A stretch of DNA of 64,000 nucleotides from an uncultured Candidatus Actinomarina sp. (GTDB taxonomy: Bacteria > Actinomycetota > Acidimicrobiia > Actinomarinales > Actinomarinaceae). Positions 2,547 to 62,835 of the stretch are shown here, one piece after another. The DNA lies in NCBI GenBank assembly GCA_902555985.1, contig CACDUI010000001.1:67291-131290 (forward strand). Direction: 5' to 3'. Position numbers and translations under genes: made by a program. The notes below the pieces were generated by a model, which searched no databases, was not told the origin of the DNA, and worked only from the letters and a program-made list of their open reading frames with translations. Each line of letters starts with the position of its first letter. Positions within the stretch are counted from its first letter, which is position 1.

Positions 2547-3755
2547 ATGGCATTAATAGTACAAAAATTTGGTGGAACAAGTGTTGCAGATACTGATTCG
2601 CTCAGAATAGTGGCTGAAAGAATTATTGAATGCAAAAAGAACGGATATGATGTAGTGGTCGTTCCTTCTGCAATGGGTTCTAGTACAGATGAACTTATTC
2701 AATTAGCTAATAATCTTTCTGAAAACCCAACACCAAGAGAACTGGATATGCTTCTTTCAGCAGGTGAGAGGATAACCATGTCATTGTTGTCAATGCATTT
2801 AAATAGTTTGGGATATAGTTCATTTTCGCTAACTGGTTCTCAAGCTGGCATTATTACAACTTCGAAACATGGACAAGCAGAAATAGAGGAAATTACGGGT
2901 GAAAGAGTAAAAGAGGGCTTAGATAGCGGAGATATTGTTATAGTTGCTGGTTTTCAAGGATTCAATAGAGATACAAAAGAAATAACAACACTTGGCAGAG
3001 GTGGTTCTGACGCAACAGCGGTGGCACTAGCTGCAGCATTAGGAGCAGAAAGGTGTGAAATATTTACTGATGTAGAAGGAGTGTACACTGCAGACCCGAG
3101 AGTAGTTAAATCAGCAGAATTAATTCCGGAAATAACTTATGAAGAAATGTTAGAGATGTCTTCATCTGGGGCTGGAGTTTTGATGGCTAGGTCTGTAGAA
3201 TTTGGCAGAAGGTATAATGTACCAATAATTGTAAAATCTACCTTCAAAAACAATGAAGGTACTGAGGTAAAAGAAAAAGTAATGGAAGAAGCATTAGTCA
3301 GTGGAGTGACGCATAATAAAAAAGAAGTTAAGTTCACTCTTTTTGAAGTTCCAGATCAACCTGGAATTGCTGGAACAGTTTTTGGTTCTTTGTCAGAAAT
3401 TGGTATAAATGTGGATATGATTGTTCAGAATGTTTCAAAAGACTCGATTACCGATATATCTTTTACCGCTCCTACAGAACAGAAAGATAAAGTTGAAAAA
3501 GAATTAATTAAGATTTCAAAAGAACTTAACGCAAAGGGCTATGACATTGATGAAAATGTTGGAAGAGTTTCAATAATTGGTGCTGGCATGAAGTCAGAAT
3601 CTGGAGTAGCTTCAAAAATGTTTAAAATTTTAGGAGAACATTCTATAAACATATCAATGATTTCAACTTCACCTATTAGAATTTCATGTGTAATTGATAA
3701 TAAAGATATTGAGACTGCTTTGGAAGTTCTGCATAAGGAATTTATAGAAAAATAA
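2547..3755 (+). CDS. lysC: Aspartokinase (LysC); probable true start at the second Met (MALIVQKFGGTS) rather than ORF-track 2538
   Basis: MALIVQKFGGTSV is the canonical aspartokinase N-terminus. The amino-acid kinase domain is followed by two ACT domains. Stop overlaps the asd start (ATGA). Confidence 0.9.
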   Translation: MALIVQKFGGTSVADTDSLRIVAERIIECKKNGYDVVVVPSAMGSSTDELIQLANNLSENPTPRELDMLLSAGERITMSLLSMHLNSLGYSSFSLTGSQAGIITTSKHGQAEIEEITGERVKEGLDSGDIVIVAGFQGFNRDTKEITTLGRGGSDATAVALAAALGAERCEIFTDVEGVYTADPRVVKSAELIPEITYEEMLEMSSSGAGVLMARSVEFGRRYNVPIIVKSTFKNNEGTEVKEKVMEEALVSGVTHNKKEVKFTLFEVPDQPGIAGTVFGSLSEIGINVDMIVQNVSKDSITDISFTAPTEQKDKVEKELIKISKELNAKGYDIDENVGRVSIIGAGMKSESGVASKMFKILGEHSINISMISTSPIRISCVIDNKDIETALEVLHKEFIEK

Positions 3756-4741
3756 TGAAGATCGCAATCGTTGGCGCAACAGGTCTTGTTGGTCGCAATA
3801 TTATTAAACTATGTGAAAAGAATTTCAATGAAGAAGTTGAATATAACCTTTTTGCTTCAAAATCTTCTGAAGGTAAAAAGATAACAATCAACAATAGAGA
3901 ATTCTTTGTTAAAGAACTAAAAAAAGAAAATATTGAAGAATATGACATTTCCCTTTTCTCAGCTGGCGGAGAGAGGTCTAAGGAACATGCAAAAGATTTT
4001 GTTAAGAACGGATCATTTGTAATTGACAATTCTTCTGTTTTCAGGATGAATGAAGATGTACCACTTGTTGTATATGGTATAAATGAAAATGAAATTTCAT
4101 CAGATTCAAAATTAATTTCTAATCCAAACTGTACAACTATGGGGCTTGTAATGGCACTAAAGCCTTTACATGATCAGTACACCTTAATGTCCATGACACC
4201 AGTTGCGTATCAAGCTGTTTCTGGATCGGGCTCTGAGGCTTTACAATCTTTAAATAACGAAACCCTAATTAGTGATGAATTAGATTCTGATTATGAAGAC
4301 ACGTATTATCCTAAACCAATAGCTAGGAACGTAATTCCTCTAGCAGGTAGCTTAACTGATAATGGATATTCAGATGAAGAAATGAAATTTGTACATGAGT
4401 CAAGAAAAATTCTTGCAATACCAAATTTAATTGTTGAGCCATCGAATGCAAGAGTTGGGGTTAGAACTGGACACGGAACTTTTTGCTCTGCAGTGTTTGA
4501 AAACGAAATCGATGTGGAAGAATGTTCTAAGTTACTTAGTGACTTTGAAGGAGTAGAAGTATGGAATGATTCATTACCAACTCCACTTGATGTTGAAGGC
4601 AAAAATGAAGTATTAGTATCAAGGCTTAGACAAGGTCTTTCCTCTAAAAATATTTTAAACTTTTGGGTAGTTTCTGACAACTTACTCAAGGGTGCTGCTT
4701 TGAACGCAGTGCAGATTGCAAAATTTTTAGAGAAATTATGA
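3755..4741 (+). CDS. asd: Aspartate-semialdehyde dehydrogenase
   Basis: MKIAIVGATGLVGR is a Rossmann N-terminus. SNPNCTT contains the catalytic Cys motif. Length is typical of the bacterial enzyme. lysC-asd operon arrangement. Confidence 0.9.
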   Translation: MKIAIVGATGLVGRNIIKLCEKNFNEEVEYNLFASKSSEGKKITINNREFFVKELKKENIEEYDISLFSAGGERSKEHAKDFVKNGSFVIDNSSVFRMNEDVPLVVYGINENEISSDSKLISNPNCTTMGLVMALKPLHDQYTLMSMTPVAYQAVSGSGSEALQSLNNETLISDELDSDYEDTYYPKPIARNVIPLAGSLTDNGYSDEEMKFVHESRKILAIPNLIVEPSNARVGVRTGHGTFCSAVFENEIDVEECSKLLSDFEGVEVWNDSLPTPLDVEGKNEVLVSRLRQGLSSKNILNFWVVSDNLLKGAALNAVQIAKFLEKL

Positions 4742-5388
4742 TTTCAACAACAGACAATATAGCCCAAAAAAATAGAAAAGTTCTTGGGCCACTTGGACGA
4801 TTCTTGCTAAAAGTATTTAGGTGGGAAATTAAAGGAAAAATTCCTAATTTAGAAAAAATGATTTTAATTGGGATTCCACATACTGCAATGAGGGATGCAT
4901 GGTACGCACTTTTGGCAGTTTGGGCTTTAGATTTAAAAATTAACTTTTTCGGCGCTGCATGGGTGTTCACTAGGCTTCCGAGTTTATTTACAGTATCTAA
5001 AAATTTAGACAGATTAGGAATCCCTTGGCCATTCTGGTGGTTACAAAAATATTTGATGTTGAAACTTGGAGGTATACCTGTTTATCGAGTAAATTCTAGA
5101 GGACTGATCAGGGGAGCAGTTGAGGAATTTAAAGTGATTGACAATTATATTCTTGTTATAGCTCCAGAAGGTGGAGTTGAAGCTGTAGATCAATTTAGAA
5201 GCGGTTTTTATTATTTAGCAAAAGGATTAAATATACCTTATGTACCGATTGAAATTGATTTCAAAAATAGATGTTTTAGAATCCAGGAACCAAAATTCAT
5301 AAACGGTACATTTGAACAGGAGTCAGAAAGAATAGCTAAATTATTTGATGGAGTTATTGGAGCAACAAGAACTTTTAAAATGTTATAA
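4738..5388 (+). CDS. Putative lysophospholipid (PlsC-type) acyltransferase
   Basis: HX4D motif (IPHTAMRD) near the N-terminus, and a later VIAPEGG motif resembling the acyltransferase PEG(T/R) block. ATGA overlap with asd. Confidence 0.45.
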   Translation: MISTTDNIAQKNRKVLGPLGRFLLKVFRWEIKGKIPNLEKMILIGIPHTAMRDAWYALLAVWALDLKINFFGAAWVFTRLPSLFTVSKNLDRLGIPWPFWWLQKYLMLKLGGIPVYRVNSRGLIRGAVEEFKVIDNYILVIAPEGGVEAVDQFRSGFYYLAKGLNIPYVPIEIDFKNRCFRIQEPKFINGTFEQESERIAKLFDGVIGATRTFKML

Positions 5389-6058
5389 ATAATGGAATAA
5401 AGAGACTTAAGATATAATTTCCAACCGGTATTTGTTTCAAACCTAGTAAATTAATCCCAACTCCCACAAGTAATACTCCTCCAATTCCAGCAATAGAATC
5501 AGCTACAATTTGATCAATTGATCCACCAAGTCCAAGCGCACATAATGTAAAGAATCCTTGATAAATAAGAATAGAAACTCCAGAATATACTGCGCCCTTT
5601 CCGCCACTTGAGGTTAGAAATAGAACCAGAAAACAATCAAGTGCAGTTTTGATTAAAAGCAATTCTATATTACCTTCAACAACATCAAGAAATGGACCAA
5701 CTATTGCAAGAGGTCCAGTAATGACTATTAATGATGCAGTTAAATAACTTTCTATAAACTTATTTTTCTCAGAACTTTCTTTTTCAAATTTATTATGAAG
5801 GTACTCTCCAAAATTTTTTATTCTTTCTTCAATTTTTAAATATGTTCCAATAATTGCCCCAATTAACACTGCAATTAAAGTAAGTAAAAATTCAGGACTT
5901 TTTAAAGATTCCCTTATTCCTAGTGTCAATACAAGAAGACCAAGCGGAAGTAAATTATTTTCAAAATTTTTAATTTCTTTTTTAACAAAAATTCTTGTGA
6001 CAATTCCAACACCAATTACTGCAAGAGAATTAATTATTGTGCCAATGCCTGGAATCAT
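5375..6058 (-). CDS. Polytopic membrane protein (DUF554/YqgA-like)
   Basis: 227 aa, about six hydrophobic helices and Gly-rich. The family assignment comes from size and topology only. Confidence 0.35.
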   Translation of the reverse strand: MIPGIGTIINSLAVIGVGIVTRIFVKKEIKNFENNLLPLGLLVLTLGIRESLKSPEFLLTLIAVLIGAIIGTYLKIEERIKNFGEYLHNKFEKESSEKNKFIESYLTASLIVITGPLAIVGPFLDVVEGNIELLLIKTALDCFLVLFLTSSGGKGAVYSGVSILIYQGFFTLCALGLGGSIDQIVADSIAGIGGVLLVGVGINLLGLKQIPVGNYILSLFIPLFITF

Positions 6059-49971: not shown

Positions 49972-50823
49972 CTATCGGAGGTTTACGTCAACGAGTGATG
50001 ATATTTCTTGAATTTTTTCTAAGGTTGGTTTTTCATTTGTGCCAGCTATTATAGCTCCTGCCGCACATGCATTTTTAATAGTAGGTATTAAATCGTTGAT
50101 ACCAAACGCAGCAATATAAGCAGCTGTTGCATCTCCCGCACCAGTTGAGTTAATAGTTTTAAAATCAGGAGGTACAATTTCTATGTTGCCTTCTGAGCTA
50201 ATTAGTCTTGCAGGCAGGCTTGATGATGTTAATAGTATATATTTTACTCTCTTAGTTTCAATTAAATCATTTGCTTGCTTTACAGTAATTTCATCTTTGC
50301 TAACTATTAAAAAATCTAATTTATAGTTAATTTCATATTGGTAACCAGCCTGGCATATAAATAAATTAGTTTCATTTTTGAGATTTTTGAGATCATCCTT
50401 AATAAATTGGATTGAATATCTATCTAAAATAAGAGAATCAAAATTATTTAAATTTTCTAAACTACTCCACTTGAGCGCTTCATAACCTGAGGAAACAATA
50501 GTTCTTTCACCAGAAGAGTCAACAAAAATAGAGCATGTGGGAGTAGATGTATCATTAATAATTACATCGTCATATTGAATATTATTTTGCTTTAAATGAT
50601 TAACTAAAAATATACCCATAGGATCATTACCAATGCTGTTTCCCCTTACATGCACAGGCTTATTCCAGAGAGCTATAAGTTCTGAACAATTTATTGCCGT
50701 TCCACCTGCTCTTATTTTTGAGCTATAGCTTCTAATGTCGTCACCTCGATTAGGTAACTTATCAACGAAGTAAATTAAATCAGGATTTAATGTGCCAAAG
50801 CAAAGAATATTATTAAAAGACAT
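49972..50823 (-). CDS. PfkB-family (ribokinase-like) sugar/nucleoside kinase
   Basis: GAGDATAAY anion-hole/catalytic Asp motif near the C-terminus. 283 aa. Confidence 0.75.
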   Translation of the reverse strand: MSFNNILCFGTLNPDLIYFVDKLPNRGDDIRSYSSKIRAGGTAINCSELIALWNKPVHVRGNSIGNDPMGIFLVNHLKQNNIQYDDVIINDTSTPTCSIFVDSSGERTIVSSGYEALKWSSLENLNNFDSLILDRYSIQFIKDDLKNLKNETNLFICQAGYQYEINYKLDFLIVSKDEITVKQANDLIETKRVKYILLTSSSLPARLISSEGNIEIVPPDFKTINSTGAGDATAAYIAAFGINDLIPTIKNACAAGAIIAGTNEKPTLEKIQEISSLVDVNLR

Positions 50824-50842
50824 AAAAAAATAGTAGGTTTAG

Positions 50843-52810
50843 CTACACAAGTCCACTAATTATTGCACCTGCAACCAGGATTGCGACATAACTAAACAAA
50901 CCGCCGACTATAGCAGCTAGTTTCATACTCCGAGAAATTGCACTAGGTCCGACAAGATGGTAAACCAAAACTCCAAAAAATGGAACAAGGTAAACAACAC
51001 CTAACCAAACGTATTTCATACTTCCGTTGACTCTTTCATTAGAGTCAATGTCTTTTATTGCCAAAGCAGCCCATGCAGCGTACAACACAAACGGCATTAA
51101 ATATCCGTAAAGTTGAAATAGTAGCTGCCATATTGTTGGGCTTGAAATTGGTACTCCGCTCATAATTATCTCCTTTTCAGCATTGTAGTAATTTTCTAAA
51201 TTCTCGTTAAGTAAGTTTGTCGGCACCTGGATTGATTCAAGATCAGGTACATAAAATAAATTTATTGCTGGTGAAGGTTTATTTAAATCATCGAATTGCA
51301 TGTTTTTTTGCTCTTTTGGCCATGGATATTCTTTGTACTTATTCTTATCAAGTTCAGTTGTTTGTGCATCCGCAAAAAATCCAGCAAGCATCATTAAACC
51401 AGAAGGGTCACCCTGGAGAGGAAACCTTGCAATAACATTCGAAGAATCTATAGATGAGCAGTTATGAAGTTGTTCTAGAAGAGGCGGCGTGCTTGTTTGA
51501 TATATATTATTTTCAAAACAGTTACCTGGACCCCATGGACCTGCAAGCGCTAAGTCTGTATATCCAGAATCTAAAACAACGTTGTTTTTAACACTTACAT
51601 GTTGTGAAAAATATAAATTTGCATCCAACATAGGACTTGCAACTATTCCATATCTGTCATGATTAACGACCAAATTTTTCTCTATTATATCGCCAACCCT
51701 TCCAGGCACTACAATCCCCATTCCTTTTGCGACAACACCAAATCTATTTGTTGGAGCATCATAATTATTATTATCTATAACCAGATTTCCAACAATTGTA
51801 GTTTCTCTTCCAGGTGGATTTAGTTCTGAGTCGAGTGTATTTGGTACGATTCCCGACATGTTATCTCTCCAAATATTATTGTATAAATATAAATGACCAC
51901 CAGCATTTGTTCCTGAATAACCCAATGCATTACCCTCTACAACATTGTCATAAATTAAAGAATTACAAGGGTAACATTGTCCAATGTAGATTCCACTATC
52001 TGGATGTCCGGATGCATAAACATTGTCAAAGACTCCATCGGTAGAATTAAATGCGTAAACCCCATAATCTCCATTGTTGTAAACAGTTAAGTAAGAACCT
52101 TTAAAACCCTTTGATGTATTCCAATACACTCCATTTAAAGTAAAATTTCTCACAGATAAATTTTCAACGGCTACACCATCTGTTTCATATATCTGTATTC
52201 CATTTTCACTCATAAACTGACCATCAATAATCACTTTGTTTCTATCTGTACCCCGAAGTGTTATATAGGATGTAGTCACTGTTACGCTTTCGTTATAGAC
52301 ACCAGGCCCTATAAGTACCAAGTCTCCTGTACCTGCATCATCAACTGCATCCTGTATTTTTGTGTACTGTTCGTTTTTACCAACTTTTAGCACATTGTCA
52401 CTTAAGGTCACCTCGGCAACTTCTTCCGTGACTACGTAATCTACATCACCTACAACTATGGTGCCAACCATACCTTTATTATTTGTTCCATGATATGGAC
52501 AATAATATTCATATATGCCTGGCTCATCAAAAGTATGCTCATACTGATCACCCTTAGTGATGATTCCATAATCAAAATAGTCTGATGAAATTGCCTGCCA
52601 TGACCCATCACTAGCAATCACATTATGATCGTTTGCTCCTCCGGATTCCCAAATTACGGTTGTACCTGGCTCAACATACAAAACTCTTGGTGAAAACTCA
52701 TCATCAACGACTTTTACAATTTGTGGATCAAGACCTGCAGCTTCTTCAGAGCCACAGGCAAATAGGAATAATAGCATTGAAAGAGACAGAACTCTTAAAA
52801 ATCTAGACAT
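50843..52810 (-). CDS. Putative lipoprotein: cupredoxin (type-1 copper) domain + right-handed parallel beta-helix (NosD-like) + C-terminal 2-3 TM PLDc_N-like anchor
   Basis: Signal peptide ending LFLFACGS. Candidate T1-Cu ligands are the His in NDHNV and the Cys/His/Met of YYCPYHGTNNKGM. Central region holds repeated G/N/V-rich beta-helix turns. The tail WLGVVYLVPFFGVLVYHLVG resembles the PLDc_N membrane domain. Confidence 0.55.
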   Translation of the reverse strand: MSRFLRVLSLSMLLFLFACGSEEAAGLDPQIVKVVDDEFSPRVLYVEPGTTVIWESGGANDHNVIASDGSWQAISSDYFDYGIITKGDQYEHTFDEPGIYEYYCPYHGTNNKGMVGTIVVGDVDYVVTEEVAEVTLSDNVLKVGKNEQYTKIQDAVDDAGTGDLVLIGPGVYNESVTVTTSYITLRGTDRNKVIIDGQFMSENGIQIYETDGVAVENLSVRNFTLNGVYWNTSKGFKGSYLTVYNNGDYGVYAFNSTDGVFDNVYASGHPDSGIYIGQCYPCNSLIYDNVVEGNALGYSGTNAGGHLYLYNNIWRDNMSGIVPNTLDSELNPPGRETTIVGNLVIDNNNYDAPTNRFGVVAKGMGIVVPGRVGDIIEKNLVVNHDRYGIVASPMLDANLYFSQHVSVKNNVVLDSGYTDLALAGPWGPGNCFENNIYQTSTPPLLEQLHNCSSIDSSNVIARFPLQGDPSGLMMLAGFFADAQTTELDKNKYKEYPWPKEQKNMQFDDLNKPSPAINLFYVPDLESIQVPTNLLNENLENYYNAEKEIIMSGVPISSPTIWQLLFQLYGYLMPFVLYAAWAALAIKDIDSNERVNGSMKYVWLGVVYLVPFFGVLVYHLVGPSAISRSMKLAAIVGGLFSYVAILVAGAIISGLV

Positions 52811-52971: not shown

Positions 52972-53115
52972 ATGACAGGCAAAACTTGGTCACGTTTTAT
53001 GAATATTCAAAATCGAAAATTTATAGCAATCACTTGTTCAAATTGCCAATATACAGAGTTCTATAAAGGTACATCTAAGGGTTGGGAAAGCGTCATTGAT
53101 TTTCTAGGAAATTAG
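52972..53115 (+). CDS. Possible small ORF (47 aa, one CxxC), hypothetical
   Basis: MTGKTWSRFMNIQNRKFIAITCSNCQYTEFYKGTSKGWESVIDFLGN, in a 333-bp gap between two minus-strand genes. No RBS and no homology recognised. Confidence 0.2.
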   Translation: MTGKTWSRFMNIQNRKFIAITCSNCQYTEFYKGTSKGWESVIDFLGN

Positions 53116-55271: not shown

Positions 55272-56393
55272 TTAGTGTTGGCTTGCTGCCACACTAGCAA
55301 TTATCACAATAAGAGTCAATACACCTGCGGATGCGATCACAACTTCACTTCTTGTAATTTTTATCTTCGGTGCTGCGCTCATGGCACTTGCAAATAACAA
55401 GATTGCAGCTGAAATAATCAATGCAAAAAGCGGAGCATATTCATGAAAGTTTAAGAATACTTGAGCAATGGCCACAGCAATTAAACCACCAACAACTATT
55501 GATCCCATTGGAATCATAATTGACCCAACAATTCTTTGACGTATTTTCTGGGCTTCATTATCTTCATACTCCTCTAAGCCCTTTGGAACGCCTAAGATCA
55601 TTGTAAATACAGAAATAGCAGCTTGAACAAAAGTTGACAGAATAACAACTCTCCAAAAAGTACCTCCGACTGTAATTAAATTTATTACAGGGTCTTCTGG
55701 CAAGATTGGCTCTATAGTTTGGCCAATGGTGTTTATTATAAGAAACGCTGTTGAAGATCCAAATAGTAACCCCAAACCTCCACCAGTAAATATTGATTCT
55801 CTGTCAGTAGTCAATATTCCAAAACCATCGTAACTTGAATCTAAAAACTTTTTAATATTTAATGAATTAAGTGTCCCAAGAAAACTTGTTGATAGAGAAA
55901 TAATTAATACAAATGATAAGGTGTTGTATTCAGCTATTAATTTTTGTGTTTCAGCTTCAAGTATTAGTCCATCATAAAGATAGGAGCTAGAAAGTAGGCC
56001 TTGAACAAATCCTGCAATGACACCAAAACCTAAACCAAATTTTAGAGATTTTAGAACTTTTTCGCCAATACCAACAGGTGGGGGTAAGTCCTCTTTTATT
56101 AAGACTTCAGTTTGAATAGATGGTGCTGTAATTTCAGGTTCAACCTCTTCTATTTTTTCTTCTATAATTTCCTCTGAAAAACTTGGAGATTGTTCTTCTA
56201 TAGTTGCCACTTCAGTTTCCGGTTCAGTTGTTGTGCTTGGCGAAGCTTGGATAGCTTCTCCACCAGTCCAACTATTTAGTACGTCATCTGTAGAAACACC
56301 AGATGCTTCTGCTCTAGCTTGAGCAGATCTTGAAACGAGCATTTGTGGGATACCACTGCTTGTACTGATTTGTTCTACTAGTTTTTCGTCCAT
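55272..56393 (-). CDS. Membrane protein with acidic/Pro-rich N-terminal soluble region (hypothetical), directly downstream of the oxidase cluster
   Basis: 373 aa. Low-complexity E/T/P-rich linker followed by about six TM helices. 18-bp gap after the preceding gene. Confidence 0.35.
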   Translation of the reverse strand: MDEKLVEQISTSSGIPQMLVSRSAQARAEASGVSTDDVLNSWTGGEAIQASPSTTTEPETEVATIEEQSPSFSEEIIEEKIEEVEPEITAPSIQTEVLIKEDLPPPVGIGEKVLKSLKFGLGFGVIAGFVQGLLSSSYLYDGLILEAETQKLIAEYNTLSFVLIISLSTSFLGTLNSLNIKKFLDSSYDGFGILTTDRESIFTGGGLGLLFGSSTAFLIINTIGQTIEPILPEDPVINLITVGGTFWRVVILSTFVQAAISVFTMILGVPKGLEEYEDNEAQKIRQRIVGSIMIPMGSIVVGGLIAVAIAQVFLNFHEYAPLFALIISAAILLFASAMSAAPKIKITRSEVVIASAGVLTLIVIIASVAASQH

Positions 56394-56411: not shown

Positions 56412-57191
56412 CTAGTCATTTGAGTTGTTTCTAACTACATCATCAAACGTTTTTTCATCTTGGTACCACCTCATCCAAATAACTAAGATAGAAACCCATA
56501 AAATGATTCCACCACCAAGTTTTAAAATTAAACCTGCCAATGTTTGGTCATTAATTACTGAAATGTTAAATATGTTGTCACTCATAATATAAGCAGAGTA
56601 AAGTGGTTCGGTGCCAAAAGCTAGAAAACTCGCAGGTATTGTTGGTAATAAAGACTGAAGAAATAAGTATGCTATTTTTGCAGCAGAGTTAATAGGCCTA
56701 ATCTCTTCATTAAATCCAATTACAGGTACCCACATATTTAGTGAGACTAAAAGCATTATTGAATGTATAAAGAAGTGGGCAACAGTATTGGTAACCATTA
56801 AATTTACAACAGATGACCAATGCATTCCAACCATTACAAAGTTAAACAAAAAAAATGCAACTACAGGTTTAGAAGTTATTTTTAATATTTTGATAAATGG
56901 TTTAACTGAAATAAGCTCTTTCATTTCTTTATGCATACCCATTAATAAAAGTGGAGGGGACACTAATGCAAGGACAAGATGTTCTACTGAATGAACAGAA
57001 AATAGATACTTTTCTCCAATATCATGTATTGGGTAATCAGTAAATATCCAAAGCACTACTAGTCCCGAGTACCAGGTTTTTCTCTTTGGTTTTTTTATAT
57101 GATCTTTATTAGTAGTGAATTCAAAGAAAACAACAAGGGTAACAATTAATGCCCATACGTCATAGTGAGGATGCCATGTTAAGTTTTCCAT
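56412..57191 (-). CDS. Polytopic membrane protein, candidate caa3-type oxidase assembly factor (CtaG/Caa3_CtaG-like)
   Basis: 259 aa, 6-7 TM helices, last gene of the ctaC-ctaD-ctaE-subunit IV string. Assignment by position and topology only. Confidence 0.4.
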   Translation of the reverse strand: MENLTWHPHYDVWALIVTLVVFFEFTTNKDHIKKPKRKTWYSGLVVLWIFTDYPIHDIGEKYLFSVHSVEHLVLALVSPPLLLMGMHKEMKELISVKPFIKILKITSKPVVAFFLFNFVMVGMHWSSVVNLMVTNTVAHFFIHSIMLLVSLNMWVPVIGFNEEIRPINSAAKIAYLFLQSLLPTIPASFLAFGTEPLYSAYIMSDNIFNISVINDQTLAGLILKLGGGIILWVSILVIWMRWYQDEKTFDDVVRNNSND

Positions 57192-57198
57192 TTATATT

Positions 57199-57498
57199 CT
57201 AAGAATAATTCGCTGACGCTCTTTCCAACATTACAATAGTGAAAAGTATTAATGCCAATATCATACCGCCAATAAAGAATCTATTAACTGTTTTATTTTC
57301 ATATCGTAAATGCATGAACCAACCAACGACAATTATAAATTTACCAATTGCAAGAAAGATTAAAAGGGGATCAGTGAACACACCAACAATGTCTTCTGTG
57401 TAGTAAAGAGCAATTTCAATTGCTGTTAAAATACCAAGGACAATTGCTATTTGAACATATTTTTTTGGTGTTGGGTGCTCTAAGTGATTTTCAGACAT
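57199..57498 (-). CDS. Cytochrome c oxidase small subunit IV-like (bacterial COX4/CtaF-like)
   Basis: 99 aa, three hydrophobic helices, immediately after ctaE (1-bp gap). Confidence 0.45.
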   Translation of the reverse strand: MSENHLEHPTPKKYVQIAIVLGILTAIEIALYYTEDIVGVFTDPLLIFLAIGKFIIVVGWFMHLRYENKTVNRFFIGGMILALILFTIVMLERASANYS

Positions 57499-57499
57499 A

Positions 57500-58084
57500 T
57501 TAAATTAAATAAACTACAGTAAACAACACTATCCATACAATATCAACAAAGTGCCAATACAGAGCAACAAATTCGAGATTCATGCCTCCTTCAAGAGTCA
57601 AACCTTTTTGTCGTTGACCAATCCCCCAAAGCGCAAGAAGCAGAACAACACCAACAAATACATGTAAGCCGTGGAAGCCTGTTAGTACGTAAAAAGATGA
57701 ACTAAAAATATTTGTGGAGAGTTCAAAACCTTTGTGATAAAACTCAGTGAATTCATATATTTGACCAGCTAGAAATACCGCCCCAAGCATAGCTGTTGCA
57801 AGAAGCCACACCCTTGTCTTTTCTTGATCATTTGCTTCCAAAGCATTGTGAGCCAGAACCATAGTCAATGAGCTCATTAATAATATAAATGAGCTAATGG
57901 AGGTAAACGGAATATCGTATACATCTGTTAATTTCATTCCTGGGAAGTCACTGCCTTTAAAAATCATAAAGGTTGTAATTAGTGTTCCAAAAAACAATAT
58001 TTCTGTAGATAAGAAAACCCAGAAGCCAAGTTTTCTTGTTTCAACACCAGTTGGTTCATGCGGGTAAGCGTGTGAGCTACTCAT
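57500..58084 (-). CDS. ctaE: Cytochrome c oxidase subunit III
   Basis: 194 aa, 5 TM helices with conserved subunit III blocks (GFHGLHVFVGVVLL, WHFVDIVW). Confidence 0.88.
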   Translation of the reverse strand: MSSSHAYPHEPTGVETRKLGFWVFLSTEILFFGTLITTFMIFKGSDFPGMKLTDVYDIPFTSISSFILLMSSLTMVLAHNALEANDQEKTRVWLLATAMLGAVFLAGQIYEFTEFYHKGFELSTNIFSSSFYVLTGFHGLHVFVGVVLLLALWGIGQRQKGLTLEGGMNLEFVALYWHFVDIVWIVLFTVVYLI

Positions 58085-60035
58085 CTGAATCTTCGTGAAT
58101 TTCTTCTTCTAGCGGCTCAGTGCCCCAACCAAAACCTCCTATGAGCAGTAATACAGCGCCTATAAATGCTAACGGTATTGATTTGTAAATGACAGCGTAT
58201 CCAAGAAGGGGGAGGCCAGAAGCCAGAACAATCGGAAAATATGATGGATTTGGTAATGCAATATGTTCACTTGGATTGAGGCCCTCTTCTTCTAAATCGA
58301 GTAATATTTGATCGGTTTCTTCACGCCTAACAGCTCGACCTTCTTCATCTTCTGTGTACTTTGTATGCCAGAAATCATCAAGGGCTCTTACTTCAGGTGC
58401 TTTTGAGAAGTTCCAAACTGGTGTAGGTGATGGAATAGTCCATTCAATTGTTCTTGCATCCCATGGATCAAATGGTGCTTTCTCACCGTTTCTTTTGGAA
58501 AAAATCCAATTTATCATAAAGACAATTATTGAAAGCGCAATTATAAAAGCACCAACTGTGACAACTATATTCCAAAATTGCAAGTTGGTTTCTTCTGCAT
58601 ACACCCAAGTACGTCTTACTTGACCTTGCAACCCTAACCAATGCATTGGCCCAAAAGTTAAATTAAAGCCAATCATCATTAACCAGAAATGAATTTTTCC
58701 AAGAGATTCGTTATACATTTTCCCCCAAACTTTTGGGAACCAGTAGTAAAGACCTGAGAAGATACCAAACAAAGCTCCTCCAAAAAGAACATAGTGGAAA
58801 TGTGCAACAACATAATAGGTATCTGTTTGCTGAGTGTCAGCTGGAACTATAGAGTGGGTAACTCCACTTAACCCTCCAATAACAAACATTCCAATAAATC
58901 CAAGCGAAAATAGCATTGGGGTATTGAGCTTCAACTTTCCTCCCCATATTGTTCCGAGCCAATTAAAAATTTTCACACCCGTTGGGACTGCAATAACCAT
59001 TGTTGAAAGACCAAAACCAGCTTGAGCAACCGGACTAATTGCCGAAGCAAACATATGATGTGCCCAAACTCCAAAACCAATAAATGCTATTCCAAATCCA
59101 GCAAATACTATTGCCGCATAACCGAATAATGGTTTTCTAGAAAATGTTGGTAACACTTCAGACACAATTCCAAAAGCAGGAAGAATTAATATATAAACTT
59201 CTGGATGACCAAACAACCAAAAAAGGTGCTGCCATAATACAGGATCACCACCTCCTTCTACTAAGAAAAAAGATGTTCCAAATTTTCGGTCGAATGTGAC
59301 ATAAAAAAGTGCAATTGCAATTATTGGTAGTGAAAACGCAAGTAAGAACGAAACAGCAAAGGTCATCCAAACAAACACAGGCATTCTCATGAAACGCATA
59401 CCTTTTGTTCGCATATTGATAATTGTTGTTATAAAGTTAAATGCAGAAATTAGTGAAGCTATACCAAGTATTTGTAATCCAATAGCCCAGAAGTCCATTG
59501 CAGTGCCAGGTGAGTATTTCATACCTGCGTTAGGTTGATAACCAAACCACCCTCCGTTGGGAGCAGATCCTAGCCATCCAACTTCTTCTGCTAGGTAGCC
59601 ACCTTCTGGAGCACCAGCAGTTCCAAATATAAATGTTGAATATAAAAAAGCTCCACCGAAAATAAATATCCAAAAGGAAAGAGCATTTAATCTTGGAAAA
59701 GCTACATCACGAGCTCCAATCTGTAGAGGAAGAAGATAATTAAAGAAAGCTGCACTTATAGGCATTATTGCCAAAAAAATCATAGTAGTTCCATGCATAG
59801 TAAACATTGCATTATATTCTGCAGCGGTTAAAAAATTATTATCTGGTTGAGAGAGCTGAATTCTTAGAACAAGCGCTTCAAGACCACCAATTAAAAGAAA
59901 GAAAAAAGCTGCATAACCATACATAATCCCTATTCTTTTATGGTCAACAGTGGTTATCCAGCTCCATATACCAGTTTCAGAAGAAGGTCTTCTAAAAATA
60001 TTACTTTGTTTACTTGGTTCAATTATTTTTGTCAT
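58077..60035 (-). CDS. ctaD: Cytochrome c oxidase subunit I (heme-copper oxidase), with about 90-aa C-terminal two-helix extension
   Basis: Twelve-helix core with canonical His ligands (WFFGHPEVY, HHMF...). 652 aa, against a typical approximately 550. Confidence 0.95.
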   Translation of the reverse strand: MTKIIEPSKQSNIFRRPSSETGIWSWITTVDHKRIGIMYGYAAFFFLLIGGLEALVLRIQLSQPDNNFLTAAEYNAMFTMHGTTMIFLAIMPISAAFFNYLLPLQIGARDVAFPRLNALSFWIFIFGGAFLYSTFIFGTAGAPEGGYLAEEVGWLGSAPNGGWFGYQPNAGMKYSPGTAMDFWAIGLQILGIASLISAFNFITTIINMRTKGMRFMRMPVFVWMTFAVSFLLAFSLPIIAIALFYVTFDRKFGTSFFLVEGGGDPVLWQHLFWLFGHPEVYILILPAFGIVSEVLPTFSRKPLFGYAAIVFAGFGIAFIGFGVWAHHMFASAISPVAQAGFGLSTMVIAVPTGVKIFNWLGTIWGGKLKLNTPMLFSLGFIGMFVIGGLSGVTHSIVPADTQQTDTYYVVAHFHYVLFGGALFGIFSGLYYWFPKVWGKMYNESLGKIHFWLMMIGFNLTFGPMHWLGLQGQVRRTWVYAEETNLQFWNIVVTVGAFIIALSIIVFMINWIFSKRNGEKAPFDPWDARTIEWTIPSPTPVWNFSKAPEVRALDDFWHTKYTEDEEGRAVRREETDQILLDLEEEGLNPSEHIALPNPSYFPIVLASGLPLLGYAVIYKSIPLAFIGAVLLLIGGFGWGTEPLEEEIHEDSDE

Positions 60036-61045
60036 TTAAGTGTCCCTAAATACGCAATTAAAGCATTAATTTCTGCTTCAGTCAATTCTAGGTTAGGCAT
60101 AAATGTACCGGGTTTTATTTCAGCTGGATTTGCCAGCCATTTACTCAGATTTTCTTCAGTATTATATAGAGCTGCACCTGCAAAAACATTTCTATTGGCG
60201 AAATGTGTTAAGTTTGGTGCAATCCTGTCTCCCTGGACATCCCAAACACCATCTATTACATGACATTGGGTACATCCAGCATTTAGATAAACTTGCTGGC
60301 CTTCAGCTGCAAGAGAGTTTCCTTCAAGTTGAATTGCATTTTGTTGTTGATTTTTTACCCATGTTTGAAATTCATTTTCTGAAAGTGAAAGTACTCGACC
60401 TCGCATTTTAGAATGGCTCAAACCACAATACTCACCACATTGTGCCCAAAATTCATCAGGTGAATCAGCATGAAGATTTAAATAAGTGGTTTGTCCCGGA
60501 ACGAGATATCTTTTTCCATTTAATTTTGGTACCCAGTAATTATGAAGAACATCATTAGACCACATTTCAAGTCTCACAGGCCTGTCTGCAGGAATAACTA
60601 GTACATTTGCTGTGGTTATGTCGTAATCAGGGTATTTGTATTCAAACCACCATTGATGTCCAATTACTTCAATTTTTAATGCATCTTCTGGCTCATTAGC
60701 TAGGTCGAAAATCGTTCTAACAGTAGGTACTGCAATTACTGCCAAAATAATTACAGGGATAACAGTCCATAGGATTTCTAATTTAGTATTTCCATGAATC
60801 TGTTTTGGTTCAGGGCTATCTGGTTTTTCTTTGAATACAAAAACAGAAAGTAGTAAAGCGCCTTGAACAATAACAAAAATTACCACTGCTATCCAAAATG
60901 TTAGCCAGAATAATTCATCTATAGATCTTGCATAAGGGCCTTCTGGACTTAAAGAGTCTAAGGGAGCATTTTCTATACAAGCAGATAAGAATATTAAAAG
61001 AAAATATCTTAGATTCTTTAATTTAAAAATATTTTTCACAAGCAT
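60032..61045 (-). CDS. ctaC: Cytochrome c oxidase subunit II with fused C-terminal cytochrome c domain (caa3-type); lipoprotein signal
   Basis: CuA site H...CGEYCGLSHSKM. C-terminal CTQCH heme-c motif. Start placed at MLVKNIFKLKNLRYFLLIFLSAC, a 23-aa signal with lipobox LSAC. ORF-track start 61102 would give an implausibly long 42-aa signal. Confidence 0.85.
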   Translation of the reverse strand: MLVKNIFKLKNLRYFLLIFLSACIENAPLDSLSPEGPYARSIDELFWLTFWIAVVIFVIVQGALLLSVFVFKEKPDSPEPKQIHGNTKLEILWTVIPVIILAVIAVPTVRTIFDLANEPEDALKIEVIGHQWWFEYKYPDYDITTANVLVIPADRPVRLEMWSNDVLHNYWVPKLNGKRYLVPGQTTYLNLHADSPDEFWAQCGEYCGLSHSKMRGRVLSLSENEFQTWVKNQQQNAIQLEGNSLAAEGQQVYLNAGCTQCHVIDGVWDVQGDRIAPNLTHFANRNVFAGAALYNTEENLSKWLANPAEIKPGTFMPNLELTEAEINALIAYLGTLK

Positions 61046-61117
61046 ATTTATATTATCAACAATTATTAAGGATAGCGTTGAAACAATATATAGTGTAATC
61101 ATAAGTACTATGTCGTT

Positions 61118-62001: not shown

Positions 62002-62835
62002 ATGGAAGAACTTCTTTTCTCAATAACCTATCCTCCAATACCTATTACCCAAATAGGGCCTGTTGCATTATCGCTGCACGGTGTTTTTGCAGCTGTTGGT
62101 TTTTATTTTGGTGCAAATCATGCATTGAAACTTTCTGAAGAAGATGGTGCTGATACTGAACTGTTTTCTGAAGCATTTACTTGGGCTATTTTTGGTGCAA
62201 TCCTAGGCGCAAGATTTTTTACTATTCCTGCTCAGTGGTATGCCAATCCTAATTATGGATTGGACGATATATTCACACTTGCAGGAAGCTACTCAATTAT
62301 GGGTGGTATGGCAGGTGGAATAATCGCTGCTTATTTAAAAATAACAGTATTAAATAAGCAAGATTTTAAACAATATGGTGATTATGCTGCAACAGGTTTG
62401 ATACTAGGAACAGTGATTGGCAGAATTGGAGATCTAGCAATTGTCGAACACTTAGGAAGAGAAACAAATTTCTTTTTGGGTTATGAAATAAAACCAGGTT
62501 ACGATGTAGCCCCTCAACACAACTCACTTGAGTGCTTTGAGCCTTTAACAACTTGTGGAACTTTTCATCATGTTGCCATGTACGATCTCCTACTTGCATT
62601 GCTAATCTTTTATATATTTAGAAACTTTCAGACTCGCTTTACTTTTGGAAAAGGTTCTTGGATAGGCTTGTGGGCTGTATGGTATGGGTCACAAAGGGCT
62701 GTTCTAGACACACTAAGATTTGGAATGGGTGATTCAACCATAGGAATCTTTACTTGGAACCAAATTGGTGGGTTGATGCTTGCTTTAATTGGATTAATTA
62801 TTTTTTTAAAAAATAAAGATACTAAAACAAGCTAA
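62002..62835 (+). CDS. lgt: Prolipoprotein diacylglyceryl transferase
   Basis: 277 aa polytopic protein. Lgt-like N-terminus (IGPVALSLHGVFAAVGFYFG) and a GRIGD... region resembling the Lgt signature. 2-bp gap after ctaB. Confidence 0.7.
   Translation: MEELLFSITYPPIPITQIGPVALSLHGVFAAVGFYFGANHALKLSEEDGADTELFSEAFTWAIFGAILGARFFTIPAQWYANPNYGLDDIFTLAGSYSIMGGMAGGIIAAYLKITVLNKQDFKQYGDYAATGLILGTVIGRIGDLAIVEHLGRETNFFLGYEIKPGYDVAPQHNSLECFEPLTTCGTFHHVAMYDLLLALLIFYIFRNFQTRFTFGKGSWIGLWAVWYGSQRAVLDTLRFGMGDSTIGIFTWNQIGGLMLALIGLIIFLKNKDTKTS

Follow-up and report, generated by a model that had tools for sequence, protein, structure and literature searches.

A cupredoxin fused to a CASH/NosD-like beta-helix: a widespread, functionally uncharacterised bacterial protein family linked to a two-domain multicopper oxidase

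What is the role of a protein that carries, one after the other, a lipoprotein signal, a blue-copper domain, a parallel beta-helix and a hydrophobic tail? The question is raised by a gene encoded on the reverse strand (50843..52810) of a 64,000-nucleotide stretch of an uncultured Candidatus Actinomarina sp. (contig CACDUI010000001.1; hereafter the window, with a G+C content of about 33%). The open reading frame (ORF) is complete, with an ATG start and 655 codons plus stop, and the Pfam and NCBIfam domains delineate a lipoprotein with a cupredoxin, a beta-helix and a PLDc_N-type tail of three transmembrane helices. A first-pass annotation of the stretch had described this combination as unusual. 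It turned out to be the standard architecture of a large family: in a scan of one genome per species, at least 585 stretches encoded a relative, and the best 80 of these were nearly all full-length. The family is widespread, auto-annotated and functionally uncharacterised; it fuses a cupredoxin to a CASH/NosD-like beta-helix and has a conserved link to a two-domain multicopper oxidase.

We found more than 3,400 homologues of the protein. An exhaustive search of 1.8 billion cluster representatives gave 9,337 matches with E<=1e-3, and 392 clusters (at 50% identity) with E<1e-30. Given more than 3,400 homologues and so many highly significant clusters, the domain combination is far beyond chance, real and conserved. 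There are thousands of close homologues (76-94% identity, 643-655 aa), one of which is named Candidatus Actinomarina by NCBI. The exact 655-aa sequence is present on 11 public contigs, and its 90%-identity cluster has 1,995 members. The best 80 stretches of the species scan came from Ca. Actinomarina, Acidimicrobiia, Nitriliruptoria, other Actinomycetota and many Leptospira, including L. interrogans, but also from Gemmatimonadota, Chloroflexota and Bacillota/Symbiobacteriaceae. One full-length member with 38% identity (L069 10001..11938), followed by a small PLDc_N protein, is in a single-cell assembly labelled Pelagibacteraceae; it could result from contamination or from horizontal transfer.

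The names given to these proteins in the databases are generic, e.g., “PLDc N-terminal domain-containing protein”, “plastocyanin”, or “right-handed parallel beta-helix repeat-containing protein”. The orthologue of L. interrogans is deposited as AAS70789.1 (“plastocyanin”) and as AAN48752.1 / Q8F5W3 (“Lipoprotein”). To judge by name and accession arithmetic only, it is probably LIC12217/LA1553, “petE plastocyanin”, which has been reported as 1.6-fold down in serum (PMC2841595).

We dissected the best 150 matches domain by domain and distinguished five architectures. The query type (cupredoxin, beta-helix and three-helix tail) was found in at least ten 50%-identity clusters. The other types consist of a cupredoxin and a beta-helix without the tail, of a beta-helix and the tail without the cupredoxin, of a secreted beta-helix alone (~400-460 aa), and of a beta-helix with two transmembrane helices and a PD40/TolB-like propeller (~750-800 aa; P0236, P0258, P0263, P0268). 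One protein (P0124, 778 aa) has a tandem double beta-helix.

Residues 30-122 (52445..52723, reverse strand) make up a type-1 (blue) copper cupredoxin with the ligands H62, C104, H107 and M114, as identified by Pfam, sequence matches in the PDB, Foldseek and alignments. The Copper-bind profile (PF00127) matched residues 38-120 with 41.2 bits, for a cutoff of 21.2 (E=2.3e-10), and this match and the beta-sandwich fold place the domain among the Pfam cupredoxins. The four ligands are in the canonical order His...Cys...His...Met. They are invariant in an alignment of ten diverse full-length members (A1) and in another of 42 members with 36-88% identity to the query (A2). The blue-copper-like domain of the first-pass annotation, with its His/Cys/His/Met candidates, is thus borne out, and the reservation made there that these residues might not be conserved falls away. 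An invariant full set of type-1 ligands is typical of electron-transfer sites, not of chaperone sites, in established cupredoxin biochemistry. This hallmark argues for a predicted copper centre of the electron-transfer type.

The best sequence matches in the PDB were blue-copper proteins (plastocyanin, amicyanin and 5fc9). The alignment with the plastocyanin 1bxu covers the Cys-x2-His...Gly-Met loop, and the closest solved sequence is 5fc9, a blue-copper domain of Nitrosopumilus maritimus. With Foldseek, the target-normalised template modelling scores were mostly between 0.55 and 0.79 to plastocyanins, amicyanins, pseudoazurins and other cupredoxins. The domain has the fold and the His...Cys-x2-His...Met ligand order in common with the plastocyanin, amicyanin and halocyanin cupredoxins of PF00127, and it scored far below the equivalog cutoffs of the NCBIfam models for these three proteins. 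Its Cys-x2-His-x6-Met loop is presumably longer than that of plastocyanin. Contrary to the cupredoxins that are free carriers, it is one domain of a 655-aa membrane protein; halocyanin is a lipid-anchored blue-copper protein too. The cupredoxin-extended copper nitrite reductases (NirK with tethered cupredoxin or cytochrome) show that a type-1 cupredoxin can be fused to an enzyme and serve as its tethered electron donor, and chains of such proteins in the PDB (9cck, E=2e-5, and 6hbe) match the cupredoxin of the query. In the query, by contrast, the cupredoxin is joined to a beta-helix instead of a multicopper fold; a multicopper protein is encoded by a separate adjoining gene, and in some lineages only.

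The cupredoxin is followed by a right-handed parallel beta-helix (residues ~140-435; 51506..52393, reverse strand), recognised by Pfam and NCBIfam matches and by the strands of an AlphaFold2 model. The helix reported at first pass is real, with 54.7 bits for Beta_helix and 26.2 bits for NosD (cutoff 23.6), but the length given there, about 400 aa, was too large: the modelled strands span ~140-433, i.e., about 300 aa. In one of its turns lies an invariant C279-Y-P-C282 motif (51965..51976, reverse strand). Both cysteines are invariant in A1 and A2, and in a set of 297 beta-helix domains of all architectures we found C279 conserved in 98%, P281 in 92% and C282 in 99%. In the same set D271 is 97% conserved, and an Asn ladder and several Arg, Asp and Glu reach at least 90%. 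Such conservation of C279, C282 and charged residues would fit an active site better than a passive stalk. In some members a His follows the C-x-P-C (GGCQPCH in P0126; also P0124, P0144, P0148 and P0165), which resembles the CxxCH motif of haem c. The likeness is probably coincidental, because this His is not conserved (it is Asn in the query).

The region after the helix (residues 436-559; 51134..51505, reverse strand), defined by conservation and by the model, has short helices, a cysteine pair and a Pro-rich motif. The pair consists of C431, at the end of the helix, and C451 (95% and 91% conserved in the 297 domains). The motif (P496, P498 and Q501) is near-invariant in A2 and also appears in the consensus of the relatives that have only a beta-helix.

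Neither of the curated families closest to the beta-helix includes it. The best NCBIfam match was TIGR03805, with 88.1 bits for a cutoff of 141.5 and an alignment of residues 152-396 to positions 1-254 of the 314 of the profile. The same model was the best match for most of the ten relatives that we scanned, including those with only a beta-helix. Neither the query nor any of the relatives tested reached its cutoff, which makes TIGR03805 a sister family. This family of “parallel beta-helix domain-containing proteins” is likewise functionally uncharacterised; its members, we assume, have a c-type cytochrome as partner or as fused domain, and this would resemble the pairing with a cupredoxin seen here.

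The right-handed beta-helix fold is also that of NosD (PDB 7o0y), a periplasmic protein which, together with NosF, NosY and NosL (NosDFY/NosL), serves the maturation of nitrous oxide reductase. NosD docks on NosY and, unlike the query, has neither a fused cupredoxin nor a transmembrane tail of its own. The NosD model TIGR04247 matched the query with 26.4 bits, for a cutoff of 300; only positions 1-67 of the 377 of the profile were aligned, and the match is confined to the generic N-terminal cap. The relatives scored between 27 and 70 bits. We found no nosZ, nosF, nosY or nosL within ~10 kb on either side of the gene in the window, and none in the annotated loci L001-L005. The nearest structural neighbours of the helix were carbohydrate-active enzymes, tailspikes and NosD, and NosD was not the top one. 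Given these scores, neighbourhoods and structural matches, we rejected orthology with NosD.

The hydrophobic tail starts with a PLDc_N-type hairpin of two helices (residues 560-621; 50948..51133, reverse strand), identified with Pfam and from homologues, with the signature AIKD587...W602...P610-x2-G613-x3-Y617. In the query, the PLDc_N profile (PF13396) matched only residues 592-621 and profile positions 16-41, with 22.8 bits for a cutoff of 23.3. The gathering cutoff was passed in P0121 (35.7 bits, profile positions 3-42 of 42) and in P0130 (33.5 bits). The profile matched 41 of the 42 family members with E<=1e-3 (best E 3.5e-11), and D587, W602, P610, G613 and Y617 are invariant or near-invariant in A2. 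Membership in PLDc_N therefore appears to hold at the level of the family, and is marginal for the query sequence alone. A PLDc_N-like tail had been noticed at first pass, with the caveat that it might be a generic anchor; the family-wide signature sets this caveat aside. What had been overlooked is a third transmembrane helix that runs to the C-terminus (residues 627-655; 50846..50932, reverse strand), with a hydropathy peak of 2.36, a model helix at 627-651 and conservation in full-length homologues. Hydropathy alone delimits three C-terminal segments (567-585, 597-626 and 628-655).

PLDc_N hairpins have a W-D...(R/K) loop and a W...P-x2-G-x3-Y signature, both of which are also found in the query family. 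They are usually placed at the N-terminus of cardiolipin synthase-type enzymes or make up small stand-alone proteins. In the query, by contrast, the hairpin is C-terminal and precedes a third transmembrane helix, and Pfam found no PLDc/HKD catalytic domain in the protein. The catalytic domain is optional in PF13396, many of whose members are stand-alone. In Leptospira, a stand-alone copy of the tail of ~100 aa (PLDc_N and third helix, with PLDc_N above the cutoff) is encoded between the target and the oxidase described below (L085 11940..12320; likewise in L005, L022, L027, L028, L037, L039 and L082). This copy suggests that the tail may oligomerise and be more than an anchor.

At its other end, the protein begins with a signal peptide (residues 1-19; 52754..52810, reverse strand), visible in the sequence and as a helix (2-18) in the model. 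The N-terminus, MSRFLRVLSLSMLLFLFAC19G, has a positive n-region, a hydrophobic core and the lipobox L-F-A-C19 already pointed out by the first-pass annotation, as in bacterial lipoproteins. A cysteine in this context recurs in the homologues that we inspected (e.g., LLAACAG, VVAACGD and ISACSG). The homologues of 643 aa point to an alternative start at M12, but the 655-aa start seems preferable because the other would delete the charged n-region. The protein is probably exported and lipidated; the window also encodes Lgt (62002-62835).

The AlphaFold2 model was built from the 42-sequence alignment and has a mean predicted local distance difference test score (pLDDT) of 86 and a predicted template modelling score of 0.74. 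It shows the cupredoxin sandwich (30-120), the beta-helix (block pLDDT mostly 90-98), then short helices (445-494), a linker of lower confidence, a beta hairpin (547-556) and the transmembrane helices (560-590, 597-620 with a break at P610, and 627-651). We read the whole as a putative cell-surface protein with two membrane anchors, a lipid at the N-terminus and a PLDc_N-type bundle of three helices at the C-terminus. The loop between the first two transmembrane helices (K586-D587...K599 in the query, WD-x2-RR in most homologues) would be cytoplasmic, since the ectodomain lies outside, and this agrees with the positive-inside rule.

To study the genomic context of the family, we predicted the ORFs of 85 loci, grouped them into clusters and annotated those clusters that recurred. 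The only partner that recurred across phyla was a two-domain multicopper oxidase. It is encoded directly downstream of the target, on the same strand, in 21 of the 85 loci and in three phyla (ten loci of Leptospiraceae, three of Gemmatimonadota, three of Acidimicrobiia, four of Nitriliruptoria and one of another actinobacterial metagenome-assembled genome). This oxidase has the domains Cu-oxidase_3 and Cu-oxidase_2, and in L. interrogans it carries four HxH motifs and a YHCH motif. The four HxH and the HCH mark it as a predicted oxidase-type protein with a trinuclear cluster. We considered and rejected its being a NirK, given these motifs and the scores of TIGR02376 (77-91 bits for a cutoff of 296). 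In Leptospira, the order is target, stand-alone tail protein, oxidase and SCO1, the latter following the oxidase in nine loci. The presence of this dedicated copper chaperone in the operon suggests that the target and the oxidase may be copper clients.

We also examined five contexts (L086-L090) of relatives without the tail or without the cupredoxin. In three of them, a gene of the DUF1996 family abuts or overlaps (<=4 bp) the 3' end of the gene encoding the beta-helix relative. These DUF1996 genes are in Acidimicrobiia-type genomes (L086 7389..8390, L087 7626..8528 and L089 6301..7086). DUF1996 has been studied mostly in fungi, and we found no relative of solved structure by sequence. In L089, a separate cupredoxin gene (168 aa) precedes the beta-helix gene at a distance of 36 bp, and 8 bp separate the latter from the DUF1996 gene. 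A cupredoxin gene also lies 2 kb away from the beta-helix relative in L086; the neighbours in L088 and L090 are different ones. Cupredoxin and beta-helix are thus associated in two ways, fused in some genomes and encoded side by side in others.

Other recurrent neighbours in actinobacterial metagenome-assembled genomes (an AlaX-like protein, a major facilitator superfamily transporter, an alpha/beta hydrolase and a class-V aminotransferase) were discarded as lineage synteny, not partners. No linked ABC transporter was found in the window or in the clustered loci. The gene-free stretch beside the target in L003 (396..7497) is an rRNA operon, divergent from the target, whose 23S is split by an insertion of ~2 kb (578-1443 and 3528-5710); a similar gene-free stretch is present in L002 and L004, where a LAGLIDADG ORF was called within it.

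In the window, the genes upstream of the target on the same strand, beyond a 334-bp spacer, encode a short-chain dehydrogenase/reductase, an isocitrate lyase, a 373-aa membrane protein, CtaG, CoxIV, CoxIII, CoxI and CoxII. The last five, identified with Pfam, form a caa3-type cytochrome c oxidase operon, with a cytochrome c fused to CoxII (56412..61102, reverse strand; 3.6 kb upstream of the target). Haem O synthase and Lgt are encoded on the opposite strand beyond the cox genes. This gene order is common to other Actinomarina genomes. The 373-aa protein (55272..56393, reverse strand), whose gene separates ctaG from that of the isocitrate lyase, is acidic and of low complexity at its N-terminus and contains several hydrophobic segments. 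Neither Pfam nor NCBIfam gave a match; the protein takes the same position in seven related Actinomarina-type loci and could be an oxidase-associated membrane protein. The spacer itself contains an ORF of 47 aa (MTGKTWSRFMNIQNRKFIAITCSNCQYTEFYKGTSKGWESVIDFLGN; 52972..53115, forward strand) whose CxxC-x-YTEFY tail resembles a zinc ribbon, without a match in NCBIfam.

Downstream, on the same strand and after a gap of 20 bp, are genes for a PfkB kinase, an acyl-CoA dehydrogenase and a CoA-binding protein. In other Actinomarina, the target and pfkB are separated by a cation-efflux gene of 187 aa, which is on the opposite strand (L001 11965..12528; six clustered loci). This gene appears to have been gained or lost within the genus, because the window has just the 20-bp gap at this place (50823..50843). 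A functional operon of the target with the PfkB kinase and the acyl-CoA dehydrogenase is unsupported, as the cation-efflux gene is interposed in a sister genome. A scan for promoters and terminators around the gene gave only background levels, and the window has no tRNA and no Rfam elements.

The comparative context narrows the function, called unclear at first pass, to copper-linked redox chemistry or copper handling. We tentatively favour a copper redox module that lies outside the cytoplasm and is connected with a copper oxidase, and would put its chances at a little under even. It builds on what is directly observed, i.e., the identity of the domains, the invariant ligands and cysteine pairs, a conserved architecture and the genes nearby. 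The work would be done by the beta-helix, with its conserved charged surface and its C-x-P-C pair; it would bind or oxidise a substrate outside the cell or, instead, its own dithiol. The cupredoxin fused to it, of type 1, would act as a tethered one-electron relay, from which electrons would pass to the two-domain multicopper oxidase whose gene adjoins that of the target in Leptospira, Gemmatimonadota, Nitriliruptoria and some Acidimicrobiia. In Actinomarina the electron sink might be the caa3 oxidase or an unlinked partner. We infer this sink, the direction of the electron flow and the redox or metal role of the C-x-P-C. We favour the redox module because of the invariant His/Cys/His/Met set, the association of cupredoxin and beta-helix by fusion and adjacency, the oxidase in 21 of the 85 loci, the SCO1 of Leptospira, the conservation of the cysteines and the quality of the model (pLDDT 86). 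A bolder version, which we regard as rather doubtful, is that of an unrecognised class of extracytoplasmic, membrane-anchored copper oxidoreductases, where a C-x-P-C beta-helix is wired through type-1 copper to a terminal copper oxidase in a new oxidative or respiratory module. The terminal oxidase would then be the two-domain multicopper oxidase or an aa3-type oxidase, with thiols, Cu(I), or a reduced metal or organic compound as candidate substrates.

Several observations weigh against the redox module. None of the structural neighbours of the beta-helix is a redox enzyme with a catalytic domain of this fold, and a conserved cysteine pair in extracytoplasmic proteins is often a mere structural disulfide. 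The window encodes no multicopper oxidase, SCO1 or DUF1996 in its 64 kb. The synteny of the target with the cox genes is found only in Actinomarina and close relatives (seven loci), and this linkage is weak as independent evidence for that reason. In three Acidimicrobiia loci the target stands among housekeeping genes, beside a gene-free stretch. Finally, our literature search found no functional study or description of the architecture or of the family.

The main rival reading is that of a factor for copper acquisition or metallation, in which a NosL-like cupredoxin and a NosD-like beta-helix capture copper outside the cell. The copper would be handed, perhaps via the C-x-P-C, to apo-cuproenzymes such as the multicopper oxidase or, in Actinomarina, the CuA and CuB sites of the oxidase. 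The similarity of the beta-helix to the NosD domain and the copper-trafficking context speak for it, but we consider it unlikely. The resemblance to NosD is limited to a generic cap (26 bits for a cutoff of 300), NosD has no privileged place among the structural neighbours, and neither nosZ, nosF, nosY, nosL nor a linked ABC transporter was found in the window or the surveyed loci. Moreover, a fully liganded type-1 site binds copper tightly, which is atypical for a chaperone, and no second chaperone would be needed if SCO1 plays that part.

Alternatively, the protein might be a docking and electron-donor subunit of a trimeric two-domain multicopper oxidase, much as pseudoazurin is the electron donor of NirK, with the cupredoxin as physiological donor and a beta-helix without chemistry of its own. 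The beta-helix, the three-helix tail and the small PLDc_N paralogue of Leptospira would then just hold the oxidase at the membrane. We find this improbable. Target and oxidase are indeed tightly adjacent on the same strand in 21 loci, and the stand-alone copy of the tail downstream of the target, in Leptospira and in L069, suggests a larger transmembrane bundle. Yet around three quarters of the full-length loci, including all those of Actinomarina, have no adjacent oxidase, the relatives without cupredoxin or tail pair with DUF1996 instead, and the conservation of the C-x-P-C and of the charged residues would be unexpected in a mere scaffold. The nearest folds of the beta-helix are polysaccharide-active enzymes, which would fit a lyase, an epimerase, a hydrolase or an adhesin acting on envelope or environmental polysaccharides, the cupredoxin being accessory. 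This we hold to be very improbable: the identity to carbohydrate-active enzymes is just 11-19%, and the catalytic motif DPH(D/E) of AlgE4 and AlgG is absent from the query sequence. No genes of carbohydrate metabolism are consistently linked to the family, and the PfkB kinase is not a fixed neighbour, as the cation-efflux gene of the sister genome intervenes. The recurrent partners are copper and electron-transfer proteins, and this speaks against a beta-helix that is simply polysaccharide-active.

Each of the three modules of this protein is familiar, yet their conserved combination has no characterised member. The family has been kept in the ~1 Mb genome of Actinomarina, which is among the most abundant marine actinobacterial lineages, and its member in L. 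interrogans is in an organism where genetics is possible. It offers a testable entry to the question of how copper enzymes outside the bacterial cytoplasm are wired or supplied with their metal, and a first functional handle on poorly understood families, i.e., the PLDc_N hairpins, the TIGR03805-like beta-helices and DUF1996. If the bolder version of the redox reading is true, a copper oxidoreductase module would be common to the abundant Actinomarina of the sea, to Acidimicrobiia of soil and freshwater, and to pathogenic Leptospira.

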